Source: Promethearchaeota archaeon (GTDB lineage Archaea > Asgardarchaeota > Lokiarchaeia > Sigyniarchaeales > SOKP01). From it: DNA of 14,615 bases. Under the pieces are notes generated by a model. That model searched no databases, was not told where the DNA came from, and saw only the letters and a list, made by a program, of their open reading frames with translations. Position numbers and translations under genes: made by a program. This document shows, piece after piece, positions 1 to 14,494 of this stretch. Location: positions 1-14,615 of the forward strand of contig JABCSY010000100.1 in NCBI GenBank assembly GCA_018238625.1, in the 5' to 3' direction. Position 1 is the first letter of the stretch, and every line of letters begins with the position of its first letter.

Positions 1-1136
1 ATGAGATGCTCCTGTACTTTAATGAAAAATTTGCAAATCCGGCTTCTCTTCATTGCGATGGAGATATTGCTACGGATATTTTAGAGACATCGCGAGAAAA
101 AATTGCAGAGTTTGTGAATGCACCTAATCCATCTGACATCCTATTTACTTCTGGAGCGACCGAATCAAATAATTTGGCTTTAATAGGAGCTGCTATGAGA
201 CAGAAGAAAAAAGGGAACCACATAATTATTTCTGAAATCGAACATATATCTATCTTAAACCTTGGGAAATATTTAGAAAGACAGGGGTTTAAAGTAAGTA
301 GAGTTTCTGTAGATCGATTTGGTATCATTAAATTAGATAAACTTGAAAAGCTAATAACAGATGAGACGATTTTAATCTCAATATCAACGGCTAGTAACGA
401 AGTTGGCTCCCTTCAACCTACCGCTGAAATTAGTAGGATTGCAAGAGAAAAAGGGATATTATTTCATACTGACGCAGTTGCTAGTGAAAACATAGTTCCA
501 ATTGATGTTCAAAAGGTTCCGATAGATTTAATCACATTATCATCAAACGATATTTACGGACCAAGAGGGGTTGGCGCGTTATACTTAAAAAGGGGGGTAC
601 GAGTTAACCCTATAATAATTGGTGGCGGTCAAGAAAGAGGTATGAGGTCAGGTTCTGAAAATGTATCCGGCATCGTTGGGTTTGCTAAAGCCGCAGAAAT
701 TATGAAGGAAGAAATGCCCAAAGAATCAGAAAATTTAAAAAAGTTAAGAGATAAGTTGATTAAGAATATCTTGGAAACAATTCCTAAATCGTATTTAAAC
801 GGACATCCCGAAAAAAGACTTCCTCACAACGCACATTTTCGATTTGATTATATCGAAGGGGAATCGTTGATATTAACGCTAAAGGAACACAATATTGCTG
901 CTGCTACAGGCTCAGCTTGTAGTTCAAAAACATTAGAGGCATCTCACACGTTAATTGCAATGGGTCTTTTGCACGAAGAAGCACACGGTAGTCTACTAGT
1001 TTCTTTAGGTAGAACTACTCGCGAGCCCGATGTTGATAAGCTTATAGAAGTTTTACCAAACGAGGTAAAACGGTTGAGAAAGTTGTCTCCTTTAACGCCT
1101 CCAGAATTATTAAAAAAATATGATGAGGTAAAATAA
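1..1136 (+). CDS. iscS: IscS/MisS cysteine-desulfurase-like protein, Archaeoglobus-type (Schiff-base Lys replaced by Asp); 5'-truncated by the window edge
   Basis: Group I desulfurase motifs NPASLH, FTSGATESNN, EH, GGGQERGMRSGSEN and GSACSS (Cys codon 918-920). The frame is open upstream of the ATG at 6 (GAG at 3-5) and the N-terminal 'YxD..T' segment is missing, so the true start lies outside the window. SSNDIYGP replaces the usual S[AG]HKxYGP. Confidence 0.95.
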   Translation, partial: EMLLYFNEKFANPASLHCDGDIATDILETSREKIAEFVNAPNPSDILFTSGATESNNLALIGAAMRQKKKGNHIIISEIEHISILNLGKYLERQGFKVSRVSVDRFGIIKLDKLEKLITDETILISISTASNEVGSLQPTAEISRIAREKGILFHTDAVASENIVPIDVQKVPIDLITLSSNDIYGPRGVGALYLKRGVRVNPIIIGGGQERGMRSGSENVSGIVGFAKAAEIMKEEMPKESENLKKLRDKLIKNILETIPKSYLNGHPEKRLPHNAHFRFDYIEGESLILTLKEHNIAAATGSACSSKTLEASHTLIAMGLLHEEAHGSLLVSLGRTTREPDVDKLIEVLPNEVKRLRKLSPLTPPELLKKYDEVK

Positions 1137-1140
1137 TAAA

Positions 1141-1944
1141 ATGAAATCTACTACATATTCAGACAAAGTATTAGAGCACTTCAAAAATCCTAGGAATGTA
1201 GGTGAGATTGAGGATGCAGACGGAATTGGTCGAGTTGGGAACCCTGTTTGCGGAGACCTTATGTGGATCTATCTCAAAATTGCCAAAAATGAAAAAGATG
1301 AAGAAATAATCGAAGATATTAAATTTAAAACATTTGGTTGCGGTTCAGCTGTTTCTACATCATCCATGATTACTGAGATGGCAAAAGGTATGACTCTTGA
1401 CGAAGCGTATAAAATTACGCGACAAAATGTTGCTGACGAATTAGATGGACTTCCTCCTATAAAAATGCATTGCTCTAATCTAGCTGCTGATGCTTTAAAA
1501 GCCGCAATAGATAATTATCGTTTAGGTACCGAACCAGAAATCGAGATCGTTACGTCTTGTCAATTAGATGTTAGAATAATACTCGGAATCGATGACTTCA
1601 TTGGGAAAGGTGTCTATAAAGAAGTACCCGCGGATTTAGAAGAGCTTAAAGAAAAAAGAATTATTATAGTCGACTCAGGAGACGAATCTTTAGAGCTCGC
1701 ACTTAAACTGACAGAATATACTGGAAGAGTAATTGTTGTGACTTCTTCAAAATCAGTCCCGGGTACTGTTGAATTGAGGAAAAAACTGAAGCATTCAGAT
1801 GTAAAACTATTACAAGAATCAGAATTAATTGAAATCAAAGGAGAGCTCGATGAAGTAGAAAAAATTGTTATCCATGATTTCGATGAGGACGAGAATTACG
1901 AACTATTCGTTGATATCGTAATAGTTTTAGATTATCGATTATAA
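1141..1944 (+). CDS. iscU: IscU/MisU Fe-S scaffold (aa ~1-128) fused to a degenerate thioredoxin-reductase-like NAD(P)H-binding domain (aa ~148-264)
   Basis: YSDKVLEHFKNPRNVG, GNPVCGD (C37, D39), FKTFGCGSA (C67) and LPPIKMHC (H110, C111). It starts 4 nt after the iscS stop, with GAGGT at 1125-1129. The C-terminal part follows the TrxR middle-domain pattern by eye. Confidence 0.92.
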   Translation: MKSTTYSDKVLEHFKNPRNVGEIEDADGIGRVGNPVCGDLMWIYLKIAKNEKDEEIIEDIKFKTFGCGSAVSTSSMITEMAKGMTLDEAYKITRQNVADELDGLPPIKMHCSNLAADALKAAIDNYRLGTEPEIEIVTSCQLDVRIILGIDDFIGKGVYKEVPADLEELKEKRIIIVDSGDESLELALKLTEYTGRVIVVTSSKSVPGTVELRKKLKHSDVKLLQESELIEIKGELDEVEKIVIHDFDEDENYELFVDIVIVLDYRL

Positions 1945-2089: not shown

Positions 2090-4462
2090 ATGGAAAAAGT
2101 TATAATTGTGGGTGGAGTTGCCGGGGGCGCTTCAACGGCAGCTCGGCTTAGAAGGTTAATGGAAGACGTAGAAATTACAGTGCTTGAAAAGGGAGAATAC
2201 GTCTCATTTGCTAACTGTGGGTTACCGTATTATATTGGTCATGTCATAAAGGACCAATCTCAATTGGAACTAATGACGCCAGAAGAATTTTGGGATCGAT
2301 TTAGGATTAAAATAAAAATTAATCACGAAGCAATTTCAATCAACAAGAAAAAGAAAACTGTTTCGGTTAAAAACCTTGAAAACGATAAAGATTTCGAATT
2401 GGACTATGATTACCTAGTACTTTCTCCTGGAGCTACCCCAATTATACCTCCATTTGAGGGCCTCGGTGATGTTCCCGTATTTACCCTGAGAACTATTCCA
2501 GATTCCGTTAAGATCAAACAATTTGTTGAAAAGAATGATGTTAAGCACGCTACCATCATCGGGGGCGGCTTTATCGGTTTAGAAATGGCTGAAAATTTGA
2601 AGCATAGAGGTGCTAAGGTAAAAATCGTGGAAATGCTTGACCAAGTTATGGCGCCTATAGATAAAGAAATAGCCCAATTCGTACATCAAGAACTATTACT
2701 AAATGGTGTCTGTTTACAATTAGAGGACCCTGTTGATTCTTTCAAATGTGATAGTGACAATTGTTTTTACGTTATTCCTAAAAGTGGGAAAAATATTAAG
2801 ACTGACATGATAATTTTAGCAATAGGGGTCAAACCAGAAAGCAAATTAGCTAAACAGGCCGATTTAAAGATTGGTCCGCGAGGGCATATTATTGTTGATC
2901 AACAAATGAAAACCTCAGATCCTTCAATATTTGCTGTAGGTGACGCAGTCCAAGTAAAAAATTTTATAACACAAGAACCCACTGGAATACCTTTAGCGGG
3001 TCCAGCAAATAAACAAGGGAGAATAGTTGCTGATGTCATTGCTGGTCGTGATACGAAGTATCAAGGAATTTTGGGAGCCTCCGTCGTAAAAGTGTTTGAT
3101 TTAACTGTTTCAACAGTAGGTTTAACTGAAAAGCAATTAAAGAAAACTGATATTAAGTACGAAAAGATTTACATACACCCTAATAACCACGCAGGTTATT
3201 ACCCTGGAGCTGTGCCAATAACTCTTAAATTGTTATTTGAAGTTCCAAGTGGAAAAATACTCGGAGTTCAAGCAGCTGGAGGTCCAGGAACAGAAAAAAG
3301 AATTGATGTAATTGCTACTGTAATTAAATTCAAAGGAACGGTGTTTGACTTAGAAGAGTTGGAACTTACTTACGCACCTCCTTTTGGTTCTGCTAAAGAT
3401 CCCGTAAACATGGCGGGATTTGTGGCTGCTAATGTAATTAAAGGTGATATGCCTATTTGGCATTGGCACGACATTGAAAAAATAAAAAACAATAATAGTT
3501 TTATACTTGATGTGAGAACACCCGAAGAATATCAAATCGGAACTATTGAAGGAGCTGTGAATATAAGCGACTTAGAATTAAGAAGTAGGCTGGATGAAGT
3601 TCCTAAAGATAAAGATATTTACATTCTCTGCGAAGTGGGGTTTAGAGGCTACCTTTCAACAAGATTATTAATTCAAAAAGGATATCATGTTAAGAATTTA
3701 TCAGGTGGATACAAATTATTTAAAACAGCAGCAGCAACAACCGAAGAAATAGCCGCTGAGTGTGGAGCATCAGAAGAAATTATGGAAGAACTAGTTGAAA
3801 GAAAAACTACAATTACGGAAGATTATATAGAAGTAGATGCGTGCGGTTTATCCTGTCCAGGGCCTTTAACTGCGCTCATTAAATCTCTTGAAGCACTACC
3901 GGAAAACAAAAAATTAAAAATTTATGCTACCGATCCAGGGTTTAAAGCGAGTGTAGAAGCTTACGCAAAATTGAATGATGCCGTTACTTTGTTATATTTA
4001 GGTAAAGAAGAAGGAAAATTGGTTGCGACGTTAGAAAAGGGACCTATAACCATCGAAGATGTTTCAGCACCGGTAAAAATTGCGAAGAAAACGAGGAAAC
4101 AATTGAGAAGTCCAGATGCACCTGCTCTATCTGAGATGAGGGCAGACGAGTTATTCGAAGCACTTGATACAGATGAATCGCCAGGACTAATGATTGATGT
4201 TCGGACACCTCATGAATATCATAGTGGACATATTAAAGACACTAAATTAATGCCGTTAGGGGAATTGATGCATAATATTGATGCTTTAAACAAATATAAG
4301 GATGAGGAAATTGTTGTAGTTTGCCATAGTGGGGCACGCTCGATGATGGCAGCCCAATTAATGGTCAGAGAGGGATTTAAAGATGTTAGAAACCTAACAG
4401 GTGGCATGATTATATGGCACCGGAATGGTTACCCTGTGTTGCCACCTAAAAAAGAATACTAG
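2090..4462 (+). CDS. CoA-disulfide/CoA-persulfide reductase fused to rhodanese, TusA and a second rhodanese domain
   Basis: GGVAGG FAD motif, SFANCGLPY (C43), GGGFIGLE, AVGDA and YAPP; rhodanese 1 (LDVR..EY, loop CEVGFR, C514); TusA (DACGLSCPGP, C589, ATDPGF); rhodanese 2 (IDVRTPHEYHSGHI, loop CHSGAR, C745, NLTGGM..W). Confidence 0.92.
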   Translation: MEKVIIVGGVAGGASTAARLRRLMEDVEITVLEKGEYVSFANCGLPYYIGHVIKDQSQLELMTPEEFWDRFRIKIKINHEAISINKKKKTVSVKNLENDKDFELDYDYLVLSPGATPIIPPFEGLGDVPVFTLRTIPDSVKIKQFVEKNDVKHATIIGGGFIGLEMAENLKHRGAKVKIVEMLDQVMAPIDKEIAQFVHQELLLNGVCLQLEDPVDSFKCDSDNCFYVIPKSGKNIKTDMIILAIGVKPESKLAKQADLKIGPRGHIIVDQQMKTSDPSIFAVGDAVQVKNFITQEPTGIPLAGPANKQGRIVADVIAGRDTKYQGILGASVVKVFDLTVSTVGLTEKQLKKTDIKYEKIYIHPNNHAGYYPGAVPITLKLLFEVPSGKILGVQAAGGPGTEKRIDVIATVIKFKGTVFDLEELELTYAPPFGSAKDPVNMAGFVAANVIKGDMPIWHWHDIEKIKNNNSFILDVRTPEEYQIGTIEGAVNISDLELRSRLDEVPKDKDIYILCEVGFRGYLSTRLLIQKGYHVKNLSGGYKLFKTAAATTEEIAAECGASEEIMEELVERKTTITEDYIEVDACGLSCPGPLTALIKSLEALPENKKLKIYATDPGFKASVEAYAKLNDAVTLLYLGKEEGKLVATLEKGPITIEDVSAPVKIAKKTRKQLRSPDAPALSEMRADELFEALDTDESPGLMIDVRTPHEYHSGHIKDTKLMPLGELMHNIDALNKYKDEEIVVVCHSGARSMMAAQLMVREGFKDVRNLTGGMIIWHRNGYPVLPPKKEY

Positions 4463-4703: not shown

Positions 4704-5288
4704 ATGAAAGAAACACCTAAAAAATTATTTGCTGCTTATGTTGGCGAATCTCAAGCTAGAAATAGATATACCTTCTTCGCATCGATAGCCAAAAAGGAAG
4801 GATATGTATTAATATCGCGAATATTTCAAGAAACTGCTGATCAAGAGCGTGAACACGGTCTAAACTTTTATAAAATGCTCCAAGAATTCAAAAAGGAAGA
4901 AAAATTTGATGATTTCCTCGTAAATGAGATGTACCCTACAACTTATGGAAAAACTATAGAAAATTTAAAATCCGCAGTTAATGGTGAAACAATGGAGTTT
5001 ACAAAACTATATCCGGATTTAGCAGATACCGCTGAAAAAGAGGGGTATCCTCATATTGCAGAAAGAACTCGTGCTATCGCTCGTGCAGAACAACATCATG
5101 CAGAACGCTACGGTAAGCTGTTGAAATTAATTGGAGATGATGCGTTCTTTAAACGAGGAGAGAAAGTAGTGTGGGTCTGTCTTGAATGCGGCTACGAAGT
5201 AGAATTAGACGAGCTTCCAGAGAATTTTGTTTGTCCAAGTTGTTCACATCCAAGGTCTTATTTCAAAAAGAAATGCGAAGTTTTCTAA
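4704..5288 (+). CDS. rbr: Rubrerythrin (di-iron four-helix bundle plus C-terminal rubredoxin-like domain)
   Basis: GESQARNRYTFFA.IAKKEGY, EREH, GETME..LYP and EQHH di-iron ligands; C-terminal CLECGY...CPSCSHP. Confidence 0.95.
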   Translation: MKETPKKLFAAYVGESQARNRYTFFASIAKKEGYVLISRIFQETADQEREHGLNFYKMLQEFKKEEKFDDFLVNEMYPTTYGKTIENLKSAVNGETMEFTKLYPDLADTAEKEGYPHIAERTRAIARAEQHHAERYGKLLKLIGDDAFFKRGEKVVWVCLECGYEVELDELPENFVCPSCSHPRSYFKKKCEVF

Positions 5289-5389
5289 ATTCCAAAATAT
5301 GTATTATAAAACTTAAGCAAAATAATTAAATATTAAACTATCAATTATTGGAAACAACTATTAACTAAAATAACGATAGTGAAAGCGAT

Positions 5390-5776
5390 ATGAAACAAAA
5401 AGAGATATACAAATGTGAAATATGTGGAAAGGTAATCGAAATCCTTAAACCAGGCGTACCTGAAACCATCTGTTGTGGAAAACCCATGGTCTTAATGGGA
5501 GAAAAGACCGCTGATTGGAAAGGAGAGAAACACGTTCCTAAAATTACGATTGAAGGGAACAAAGTTACAGTAGATGTTGGCGTATCAATGGGAACTCCAC
5601 ACCCTATGACAGAAGAGCATTATATTATGTGGATTGAGTTAATCTGCAAAGACAATTGTTATAAGCGCAAGTTTTTAAAACCTGGAGACGAACCTAAAGC
5701 TACGTTTGTTGTAGCGGATACTGAAGTTGTAGGCGCACGAGAATATTGTAATTTACACGGTTTATGGAAGAGTTAA
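5390..5776 (+). CDS. dfx: Desulfoferrodoxin (2Fe superoxide reductase)
   Basis: Desulforedoxin domain YKCEICG...CCGKPM; SOR centre EKHVP, HPMTEEHYIMWIE and YCNLHGLW. Confidence 0.96.
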   Translation: MKQKEIYKCEICGKVIEILKPGVPETICCGKPMVLMGEKTADWKGEKHVPKITIEGNKVTVDVGVSMGTPHPMTEEHYIMWIELICKDNCYKRKFLKPGDEPKATFVVADTEVVGAREYCNLHGLWKS

Positions 5777-13150: not shown

Positions 13151-14494
13151 TTATTTCTTTTTAAACCCTTCTTTAGGGTTTTTACAATTTGGGCATCTCC
13201 AATCTTTTTGTAAATTTTTAAAAAGAACATCCATTTTAGATTCGTCGTATTCTGCGCCGCAGTTAGAGCACTCGTAAATATATAATTCAAGCAACTTTCT
13301 GAGCTCTTCCTTATCCACATCTTGTTCCATCTTTTTGTAAACGTAAGAAATTGCTTTATTATCGCCGAACAAAATTGCTCCTTTGAGTTTATTATCTTTC
13401 AGCACAATTTTTTGATAGCAACAATCTTTCTTATCAGATTTTTTTAAGATTTCCCACCCCGCCCCTTCTTCTTTTATCGGGTCAATATTACCAATCGAAG
13501 TTAGTTCCAACCCTACGATTTTAAGAGTGTTTTTAGGCGTAGTTCCTTCGTATTCAACTTTTTTCAATTCGAGAACTGAAGCGGCTACAATTTTGGATTG
13601 CTCCATACAAGCGGGTATTATTCCCCAAACTTGGTCTTTATATTGGACGCAATCTCCAACTGCGTAAATATCTTTTTCGCTTGTTTCTAAAAATTCGTTA
13701 ATAATTATCCCCCGATCCGTTTTAATATTAGCGCGTTTTGCCAAATCTATAACAGGTCGGATCCCCGCTTGAATTAACACTATATCAGAATCGAACTTTC
13801 TCCCATCTTTTAATTTTATGCCATTCACCATTTCATCCCCTAGAATTTCTTCAGTTGCAGCGTTTAATATCACTTTAATTCCTCTACTTTCAATCTCATC
13901 TTTTAGCATCGTACCGCATTCTTCATCTAGTTGTCTCGGTAACAGTCGGGGAAAAAATTCGACAACGGTCGTATCTAAATTACAATCGCTGATCTGACTT
14001 GCTAATTCTAAACCTAAAAGACCCCCTCCAATTACAATAGCTTTCTTTACTGCAAATTTTTCAATGTAATCTCTGATCTTTAATGCATCGTCTATAGTCC
14101 GTAAAGTGAAAACTCCTTTATTACCATCCTTCATTTCTCTTGCATTTTTAATAGGTGGAATATTTGGCGTGCTTCCTAAAGCAAGGATCAGCTTATCATA
14201 CAGTACTGGTTCGCCATCCTTCTCAAAAAGGACAGTTTTATTCTTTAGATCGATGTTTACTGCTTTCTTATGCAAATATAAGTTCAAATCTTTGTTTTCG
14301 TACCATTCTTCGTCGAAAACAATTAAATCTTCGGCTTTAATTTTCCCAGGAATTAATTCTGGAAGATGTACCCTCGAATAATAAGGATAAGTTTCTTGAG
14401 TAAAAATCTCAATTTCTACTTCATTGTTGAGAAATCTAATGTTTTGAGCAGAAAAAGTACCGGCTACATTATTTCCCAATATGACAACTTTCAT
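13151..14494 (-). CDS. NAD(P)H:rubredoxin oxidoreductase-like flavoprotein (NirB-N/NROR family) with a fused C-terminal rubredoxin domain
   Basis: YYSR..L, YDKLILALGS, GVFTLRT, GGGLLGLE, VE...RLLPRQLD, AGIRP, YAVGDC and YQKIV..DNKLKGAILFGD; C-terminal YECSNCG-x20-CPNC..PK..F (nt ~13154-13282). Confidence 0.9.
   Translation of the reverse strand: MKVVILGNNVAGTFSAQNIRFLNNEVEIEIFTQETYPYYSRVHLPELIPGKIKAEDLIVFDEEWYENKDLNLYLHKKAVNIDLKNKTVLFEKDGEPVLYDKLILALGSTPNIPPIKNAREMKDGNKGVFTLRTIDDALKIRDYIEKFAVKKAIVIGGGLLGLELASQISDCNLDTTVVEFFPRLLPRQLDEECGTMLKDEIESRGIKVILNAATEEILGDEMVNGIKLKDGRKFDSDIVLIQAGIRPVIDLAKRANIKTDRGIIINEFLETSEKDIYAVGDCVQYKDQVWGIIPACMEQSKIVAASVLELKKVEYEGTTPKNTLKIVGLELTSIGNIDPIKEEGAGWEILKKSDKKDCCYQKIVLKDNKLKGAILFGDNKAISYVYKKMEQDVDKEELRKLLELYIYECSNCGAEYDESKMDVLFKNLQKDWRCPNCKNPKEGFKKK

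Follow-up and report, generated by a model that had tools for sequence, protein, structure and literature searches.

What does an iron-sulfur (Fe-S) cluster scaffold do with a piece of an oxidoreductase attached to its end? The question is raised by a locus of a Promethearchaeota archaeon, at positions 1 to 14,615 of contig JABCSY010000100.1 (GenBank assembly GCA_018238625.1); this whole stretch of 14,615 nucleotides, hereafter the window, is contig C81 of the genome bin G000 (4.29 Mb in 201 contigs, 97.9% complete, 7.6% contamination). In the window, a single open reading frame (ORF; 1141..1944, forward strand) encodes a protein of 267 residues. A first-pass annotation, made from the letters alone, had described it as an IscU that carries a catalytically erased thioredoxin reductase (TrxR) domain of the NADPH type, and this description is borne out by Pfam, NCBIfam, profile and Foldseek matches. 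It seems fairly probable to us that the protein is the scaffold of a minimal Fe-S assembly pair, of the MIS (minimal system) or Archaeoglobus fulgidus type, and that its C-terminal vestige of a reductase now docks on the neighboring IscS, which lacks the catalytic lysine.

The N-terminal part of the protein belongs to the IscU family. Pfam NifU_N (PF01592) matches residues 5-127 (4.8e-46; 156.5 bits for a cut-off of 22), the NCBIfam profile TIGR03419 (NifU_clost) scores 194.9 bits, above its cut-off of 187.9, and the cluster-ligand columns C37, D39, C67, H110 and C111 are invariant in the alignment with Escherichia coli IscU. The profile of NifU proper, TIGR02000, is matched at its positions 4-122 of 290 only (152.2 bits for a cut-off of 273.3), and with this profile neither the central Bfd-like [2Fe-2S] domain nor the C-terminal Nfu domain of NifU is matched in the fusion protein. 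Bases 1525-1944, that is codons 129-267 and the stop, hold what follows the scaffold. Residues 136-144 of the linker have a predicted local distance difference test (pLDDT) score below 50 and the full-length model a predicted template modeling (pTM) score of 0.52, both domains being individually confident; the placement of one domain relative to the other is therefore unreliable and nothing has been drawn from it. The linker does contain the extra cysteine pointed out in the first-pass annotation, Cys140, which is found in 75 of the 75 close orthologues that could be parsed (4 further rows were not parsed by the pattern).

The C-terminal domain is the NADPH-type domain of a flavoprotein of the TrxR superfamily, with a likeness far beyond chance. 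The NCBIfam profile TRX_reduct (TIGR01292) aligns its positions 119-231 of 300, which correspond to the NADPH domain, with residues 149-261 (E 9e-11; 41.1 bits for a cut-off of 343.45), and Pfam Pyr_redox matches residues 173-245 with 22.9 bits for a cut-off of 22. When modeled alone with AlphaFold (residues 136-267, 35-row alignment), the domain reaches a pLDDT of 86.4 and a pTM of 0.79, and a Foldseek search of the PDB with this model, one of the checks proposed with the first-pass annotation, returned only NADPH domains of TrxR, TrxR-type ferredoxin-NADP+ reductase (FNR) and AhpF (TMq 0.75-0.83, root-mean-square deviation 1.5-2.9 Å, about 118 residues, E 3e-11 to 1e-9). The 35-row domain profile likewise matched TrxR-type chains in the PDB, the best being 2zbw (4.8e-13); this entry and 3lzw, titled ferredoxin-NADP reductase (4e-12), rank above the first cysteine-pair entries named thioredoxin reductase. 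The TrxR origin thus holds for the superfamily but not in the narrow sense, since the closest proteins are CxxC-less FNR-like proteins of the TrxR type and the NAD domain of flavoproteins that are themselves fused to IscU.

Which catalytic features are left in this domain? The strings and coordinates quoted in the first-pass annotation are all present in the ORF, and the alignment with E. coli TrxB and with the TrxR of the bin itself confirms that the GGG loop has become DSG, that the HRR motif has become TSS and that the FAD domain is absent. Indeed, the nucleotide loop reads DSGDES where E. coli TrxB has GGGNTA and the whole IscU-flavoprotein described below has GNGDQA, the 2'-phosphate motif HRR of TrxB is TSS (residues 201-203), and nothing aligns in this comparison to either half of the FAD domain, be it the N-terminal GxGxxG or the C-terminal GD motif. 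The site of the redox-active cysteines, just after GKGVY (residues 155-159), is KEVPA (160-164) for CATC in both E. coli TrxB and the TrxR of the bin. The CxxC is thus absent relative to TrxR, as had been claimed, but it was probably not lost within the fusion protein, because the nearest full-length relatives are likewise without it and the lineage, to judge from its sequences, never shows one; in the printed alignment, 2zbw also has YYAVKS where E. coli TrxB has CATC. Compared with low-Mr TrxR and TrxR-type FNR (2zbw, 3lzw, 3f8d and 2q7v), the domain is alike in its NADPH-domain fold, its GKGV-[YH]-Y-x-V motif and its strand order, whereas it lacks the FAD domain, the redox-active disulfide, GxGxxA and HRR. 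Judged by these motifs, it is not an enzyme of the TrxR family, and we infer that it would carry out neither nucleotide binding nor redox chemistry at present. It is also acidic, as had been noted for the tail of the protein, with 29 D+E against 17 K+R in residues 145-267, a net charge of about -12, and the stretch HDFDEDENYE.

One could object that the domain is still a sensor, in which an adenine nucleotide, NAD(P)(H) or some other phosphorylated ligand would bind and link the redox or energy state to the activity of the scaffold. The beta-alpha-beta fold is intact, and Gly180, the D-x-G-[DE]-x-S loop and A187 are nearly invariant rather than drifting (in the domain alignment A4 for D178, G180 and S183, which are D43, G45 and S48 of the fragment), so that a ligand might still bind; moreover, the whole fusions of Jordarchaeia keep a canonical GNG[DE]QA, so the loss of binding may be incomplete. 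On the other hand, the first Gly of GxGxxA is an Asp and its last position a Ser, the flanks are acidic, HRR is TSS, and no FAD domain is there as hydride acceptor. Among distant relics the loop even varies, as DRGEKS, DKGVAS, EFDQKS or YKDNKS. From what is known of Rossmann folds, a loop such as DSGDES would be unable to bind a pyrophosphate, which also counts against a sensor. We regard this role as quite unlikely.

Is the fusion a real gene, maintained as such? Related loci were collected by a pattern scan with one genome per species, in which 345 stretches matched; a relative is encoded by 222 of them, and the analysis was continued with the 80 best. In these 80 loci out of 80, IscU precedes the domain in frame, with 78 complete ORFs of 261-274 residues, the fusion ORF being interrupted by contig ends in the two others (L024 and L058), and NifS lies directly upstream in 79. 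The labels of the loci are all Asgard but one (Promethearchaeota or Promethearchaeia, Hermod-, Hod-, Thor- and Odinarchaeota, 'uncultured archaeon'). The exception, L029 (DATKTW010000107.1), is labeled Candidatus Nanopelagicaceae bacterium and displays the full Asgard-type gene order with 79-89% identity to the window proteins; this contig is probably mis-binned. Pairwise identities among the 79 fusion sequences average 0.835 for IscU, 0.719 for the domain and 0.587 for the linker. The ratio of nonsynonymous to synonymous substitution rates (dN/dS; Nei-Gojobori, NG86), calculated on the 297 of 3081 pairs with an unsaturated dS of 0.1-1.5 in both protein parts, is 0.083 for the domain and 0.043 for IscU. 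The domain is thus under strong purifying selection, and the architecture is not unique to this assembly, two points on which the first-pass annotation had made its proposal depend.

The distribution of the domain was obtained by searching, with its profile, 400 genomes of the phylum, which are grouped into families numbered with an f. Strong matches (E <1e-30) were obtained in 114 of the 134 f1 genomes besides that of the window, in 9 of 14 for f3, 4 of 4 for f4, 2 of 3 for f5, 1 of 2 for f6 and 2 of 2 for f7, as well as in most of f31, with open frames of 257-302 residues where the contig is uncut; the overall figure of 287 genomes out of 400 at E <=1e-8 takes in ordinary TrxR-like genes and is not a count of relics. 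The relic is retained in most genomes of the taxonomic class of the window. Several independent metagenome studies of cold seeps and marine sediments also yielded contigs with near-identical DNA, and two metatranscriptome runs contain contigs about 90-95% like the window over parts of the gene (sampled-word shares 0.04-0.14), one of which (X19, 799 bases) runs from the end of NifS across IscU to base 1614.

Against this background, an assembly chimera or a recently decayed, functionless appendage is hardly credible. The window does begin at a contig end and the contamination of the bin is 7.6%. Moreover, a 97%-identical copy of the locus lies on another contig, C36 (L108), which holds a B12-binding protein, TusA, NifS and the first codons of the fusion and thereby supplies the upstream part; the bin probably contains two strain variants of the locus, whose contigs break at one and the same point. 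However, the same in-frame ORF recurs in all 80 loci, in many independent metagenome-assembled genomes and in the contigs of several studies, its dN/dS is low and the domain folds confidently.

Where does the domain come from? A possible answer is provided by a second form of the protein. Two genomes of family f21 (G117 and G120) encode ORFs of 448 residues in which Pfam finds both NifU_N and a complete Pyr_redox_2. Protein clusters were then searched with the flavoprotein portion as query, which recovered 11 clusters of 447-453 residues with both PF01592 and PF07992 (P0241-P0246 and P0249-P0253), of which P0246 bears the source name 'Candidatus Jordarchaeaceae archaeon'. GNG[DE]QA is present and CxxC absent in 11 of these 11 clusters. 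With the relic domain as query, no fused form of 469-2000 residues was found, and the 120 matches listed for the flavoprotein part include no whole fusion from methane-cycling archaea. The IscU domain of the whole IscU-flavoprotein is 54% identical to the window protein over the alignment, and its NAD domain is of the same CxxC-less type; outside the relics themselves, nothing matches the relic profile more closely. The whole form differs in having both FAD halves, recognizable by GGGPAG and GD, and in the intact state of its GNG[DE]QA loop. The relic hidden Markov model indeed gives 124-166 bits to relics, 81-91 to the NAD domains of whole fusions and at most 70 to stand-alone TrxR-like proteins, and the two forms have in common the motifs KRSD-x-K-LL, VEKV and HDL-x-EDE-x-[FY]-x-L, the acidic hairpin being already there in the alignment of whole fusions. 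A quick IQ-TREE search (72 rows, 125 columns) unites the relics (SH-aLRT 99) and gives them as sister group the whole fusions together with P0201, which has a long branch (SH-aLRT 94 for the sister relation). The gene neighborhood is also shared, since in G117 the whole fusion likewise lies behind TusA and a lysine-less NifS.

The boundaries of the relic fit such an origin. In TrxR-type enzymes, the NADPH domain is an insertion within the FAD domain, and the relic architecture therefore needs two flanking deletions. In the alignment, the linker stretch EIEIVTSC falls on the final strand of the N-terminal FAD half (the 'IIATG' region) and on the crossover strand, and the fusion protein stops just past the strand that in TrxR re-enters the FAD domain. 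We infer from these alignments that the relic would descend from a full IscU-reductase fusion, and in the direction from whole to relic, because an excised insertion with remnants of both crossover strands derives easily from a whole enzyme, the reverse not. The ancestor-like form would be a whole IscU plus CxxC-less TrxR-type flavoprotein with an intact GxGxxA loop, presumably a working reductase in its present form of 447-453 residues if its motifs are any guide; both FAD halves would then have been deleted, leaving the inserted NAD(P)H-type domain with its glycine loop ruined and without a 2'-phosphate motif.

Some further observations concern the whole fusions. One of the 448-residue ORFs (L095:700-2046) has a TTG start, and entries of 318-326 residues without the IscU part exist under the source names Freyarchaeum, Jordarchaeum and Lokiarchaeia; three such NCBI-sourced proteins (P0240, P0247 and P0248) are 83-100% identical to the flavoprotein part only. 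Some annotations seem to call the whole-fusion gene from an internal Met, which hides the fusion. In G117, the lysine-less NifS is separated from the whole IscU-flavoprotein by an ORF of 136 residues without Pfam match (L104:6364-6774), and a gene with an FmdE domain comes after the whole fusion in both G117 and G120.

As partners of the domain, the first-pass annotation had proposed thioredoxin- or glutaredoxin-like proteins, the neighboring reductase or clients; the likeliest one, as judged from structure prediction, would rather be the adjacent lysine-less IscS/NifS. Only four bases separate the end of the NifS gene (base 1136) from the start of the scaffold (base 1141). The NifS product matches Pfam Aminotran_5 (1.4e-67) and, best in the PDB, A. 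fulgidus IscS2 (4eb5, 8.5e-125), aligned from residue 20 of the chain; its orthologues begin 20 codons earlier than the cut copy of the window. The lysine that binds pyridoxal phosphate (PLP), K206 in E. coli IscS, is replaced by an Asp in the motif SSNDIYGP, and the Cys loop GSAC is retained. The same holds for 28 of 28 NifS orthologues, which are without the Lys (25 D, 3 E) and keep the Cys of the active-site loop. From this substitution, the window NifS would be without desulfurase activity. The IscS2-IscU pair of A. fulgidus, an (IscS-IscU)2 complex (4eb5, 4eb7, 4hvk; variant 4r5f, which has K at the position of the Asp), has the most similar IscS, with the same SSNDIYGP, and its scaffold gene is also directly next. 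A. fulgidus IscU is a plain single-domain protein. The window scaffold differs from it by an extra relic Rossmann domain of 120 residues and a Cys-bearing linker, and the window operon by the addition of TusA upstream and of a gene resembling CoA-persulfide reductase downstream. According to PMC7585200, the IscS of A. fulgidus has no desulfurase activity owing to the Lys to Asp change, and it provides a Cys ligand to the cluster on IscU. As in MIS systems, then, the locus combines an adjacent IscS-like and IscU-like pair with an IscS that has an Asp for the PLP lysine, and HscB (PF07743), frataxin (PF01491) and IscX (PF04384) have no match in the 97.9%-complete genome, in a search that did not include Fdx, IscA and HscA.

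A structure was predicted for the complex of two copies of a full-length orthologous NifS (from L015, 97% identical to the cut copy of the window) with the domain of the window alone. The ipSAE score was 0.67 in 3 of 3 runs, for 0.16, 0.02 and 0.00 in the controls; the contacts agree at 93% or more between runs and the partner has a pLDDT of at least 83. The mark used is reached by 116 of 157 solved complexes and by 2 of 215 mismatched pairs, counts that are only rough for a job with custom alignments and three chains. No solved structure that pairs a desulfurase with the NADPH domain of a TrxR is known to us, and it is therefore unlikely that the predictor merely reproduced one. On the domain, the predicted interface comprises 17 residues (171-173, 194-196, 222, 224, 235-236, 238, 240, 253 and 255-258), which include 6 of the 10 domain residues that are invariant across 41 diverse sequences, namely R173, R196, K222, Y253, L255 and D258 (hypergeometric p 2.9e-4). 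On NifS, it is formed by residues 118-136 and 337-345, which correspond to 122-140 and 340-348 of E. coli IscS. The predicted site would thus be separate from the IscU site and overlap the R340 part of the patch used by CyaY and IscX. In a study of this patch (PMC2854127), the mutation R340E of E. coli IscS lowers or abolishes the binding of CyaY, IscX, ThiI and TusA and not that of IscU.

The scenario that we favor could then be completed as follows. The remnant would be a docking module by which the scaffold holds on to the lysine-less IscS/NifS next to it, through contact with the helix just past the IscS cysteine loop and with a neighboring hairpin. This docking would provide a second anchor point, clamping the scaffold to the inactive IscS, and would lay the linker with Cys140 near the IscS cysteine loop, past the assembly site, while the acidic hairpin would be left exposed for iron or for a further partner. 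Sulfur would most likely come as persulfide or sulfide, via TusA and the CoA-persulfide-reductase-like rhodanese protein, rather than from cysteine desulfuration.

Besides the near invariance of the degenerate loop mentioned above, several points weigh against this scenario. The binding to NifS relies on one structure-prediction job and three controls, and the acidic loop 246-252 is outside the predicted interface (Y253 and L255-D258 being inside), so that the docking model leaves the conservation of this loop unexplained. PMC2854127 also reports that the D346R mutation of E. coli IscS affects no partner, and the binding of E. coli ferredoxin needs R220, R223 and R225 of IscS and is indifferent to E334S/R340S (PMC3750173); the overlap with the regulator patch of E. 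coli is therefore only partial. The linker cysteine is missing in 8 of the 11 distant sequences that could be parsed, and any role of Cys140 is therefore not general. As for the origin, the sister relation of relics and whole fusions has an SH-aLRT of 94, below 95, in a quick search on 125 columns whose midpoint root is for display only. As for the retention, 20 of the 134 f1 genomes are without a match, four of these being 92-95% complete. Finally, the expression evidence is weak, as the contigs cannot prove a transcript and the libraries may contain DNA.

In another interpretation, the acidic hairpin (HD-x-DEDE-x-YE) would be the functional part, either as an iron surface of the frataxin/CyaY/IscX kind or as a dock for a basic partner; conceivable partners are electron donors, apo-clients and the neighboring CoA-persulfide-reductase-like rhodanese protein, which comes near the idea of the first-pass annotation. 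The hairpin is among the best-conserved stretches of the domain and was present already in the whole fusions, its loop 246-252 lies outside the predicted IscS interface, the domain has a strong negative net charge, and the genome has no frataxin or IscX match. The CoA-disulfide-reductase (CoADR)-rhodanese gene is moreover downstream in 52 of the 62 loci with at least 3.5 kb of room; it is, however, a looser companion, absent in 10 of 62 and separated by inserted genes in 28 of 52, than NifS (79 of 80) or TusA (71 of 71). The complex prediction covered one partner only, the adjacent NifS/IscS. We consider a hairpin function of this kind improbable as the principal explanation, but it would be compatible with IscS docking.

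A parallel can be drawn between the docking that we favor and the regulators of E. coli IscS. CyaY/frataxin and IscX are acidic, dock beside the active-site loop and are both weakened by R340E, and the relic, which is acidic too, is predicted at the equivalent of residues 340-348. Its fold is unrelated, it is covalently tethered to the scaffold, and R220, R223 and R225 are outside its predicted footprint, so that this is an analogy only. A comparison with NifU and MisU is also possible, as these share with the window protein an IscU-type N-terminal scaffold with a C-terminal extension, a NifS-like pair and the lack of an HscB, frataxin or IscX match; the extension of the window protein differs from that of NifU in not being a Bfd-like plus Nfu pair. 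A 2026 review (PMC13066941) lists only IscU-like and three-domain NifU-like forms of MisU and describes MIS systems as the least studied route of Fe-S assembly. Our searches brought up no paper on a fusion of IscU with a TrxR-type domain or flavoprotein; the supplements of Garcia et al. 2022, source of the MIS classification, may bear on this point. To our knowledge, the electron source of MIS, the sulfur source when IscS is inactive, and regulation are open questions.

How could such a pair obtain its sulfur? The gene order is TusA, IscS with its Lys to Asp change, the IscU-relic fusion and the CoA-persulfide-reductase-like gene. TusA is upstream on the same strand in 71 of the 71 loci with room. 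It is the immediate neighbor in 45 of them, whereas 26 have some 450 bases in between, and this interval, in the one locus examined (L076), holds an ORF of the DsrE family. The first 550 residues of the 790-residue downstream protein match the CoADR-RHD structure 3icr (7.1e-190), 3nta and 8a56, titled 'Coenzyme A-persulfide reductase', and the lysine-less IscS may receive sulfide or persulfide from this CoADR-rhodanese protein. Extending this line of thought, one could imagine a self-contained, cysteine-independent Fe-S machine, in which TusA (with DsrE in some lineages) and the CoADR-rhodanese protein would feed persulfide or sulfide to a dead IscS, the relic would be a substitute of the frataxin/IscX class on the regulatory surface of IscS, the hairpin would be the entry of iron and Cys140 a relay or fourth ligand, the 448-residue Jordarchaeial form being the first scaffold with a built-in flavin reductase and thereby the missing electron donor of minimal Fe-S systems. 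Taken as a whole, this picture is speculative and we would rather bet against it.

In the archaea most closely related to eukaryotes, this protein family amounts to a pair of natural experiments, a whole fusion and its stripped descendant. The whole fusion, with its complete flavoprotein reductase, hints at a former route of electrons to IscU, and the stripped descendant is retained by selection, probably as an IscS-binding module, at a surface where frataxin and IscX bind in bacteria. The relic would also be a clean case of an enzyme domain reused structurally after two flanking deletions. Both fusion forms are directly testable as recombinant proteins.

Table 1. Features of the scaffold locus, with positions in the window.
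Feature	Position	Strand	Basis
NifS/IscS-type partner (MisS-like), 5' end cut by the contig start, about 20 codons missing	6..1136	+	Pfam, PDB match, alignment
IscU/NifU_N scaffold domain, residues 1-127	1141..1521	+	ligand residues C37, D39, C67, H110, C111
Linker, residues 128-148, with Cys140 at bases 1558-1560	1522..1584	+	pLDDT, identity, alignment
Relic NAD(P)H-type Rossmann domain, TrxR-like, residues 149-267	1585..1941	+	Pfam, NCBIfam, profile, fold, alignment
Degenerate dinucleotide loop DSGDES, residues 178-183	1672..1689	+	alignment with TrxB and whole IscU-flavoprotein
Conserved acidic hairpin HDFDEDENYE, residues 245-254	1873..1902	+	conservation, interface list, alignment
790-residue CoA-disulfide/persulfide-reductase-like flavoprotein, followed by rhodanese, TusA and rhodanese domains	2090..4462	+	Pfam, NCBIfam, PDB

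Three candidates were discarded in the course of this work. A pairing of the domain with a stand-alone FAD-domain partner was dropped, as no orphan gene for a FAD half was found nearby. An insect titin (P0123), the top match in a representative search, has 33 short acidic stretches and was treated as a composition artefact, and an apparent NifS-relic fusion of 534 residues in L094 has a frame that crosses bases read as X and is evidence of nothing.

The bin also encodes, on contig C134, a canonical NifS (TAHKLYGP, 531 bits) and, 3 kb away, a plain IscU of 128 residues. On contig C83 (L002:1477-2421), it has a 314-residue TrxR-like protein that keeps its CxxC (CALC) and has YGSDEEV in place of the GGG loop; going by this loop, it is a second protein of the reductase family with a degenerate NADPH site in this genome, and it presumably recalls the ferredoxin- or deazaflavin-dependent types of TrxR.

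Around the cluster, the insert between scaffold and CoADR in one related locus (L044:6927-8744) consists of an ORF of 214 residues without Pfam match and, on the opposite strand, a protein with CCG and 4Fe-4S dicluster domains resembling HdrD. Here and in most related loci, rubrerythrin and desulfoferrodoxin follow the cluster (4704-5776, forward strand in the window), an oxidative-stress gene pair beside Fe-S assembly genes, and a CitMHS transporter and a HAD hydrolase come after them. Toward the other end of the window, on the reverse strand (13151-14494), a protein of 447 residues combines Pyr_redox_2 and Rubredoxin_C with a weak match to rubredoxin at its C terminus, and has the appearance of a rubredoxin reductase that carries its own rubredoxin as a fusion.

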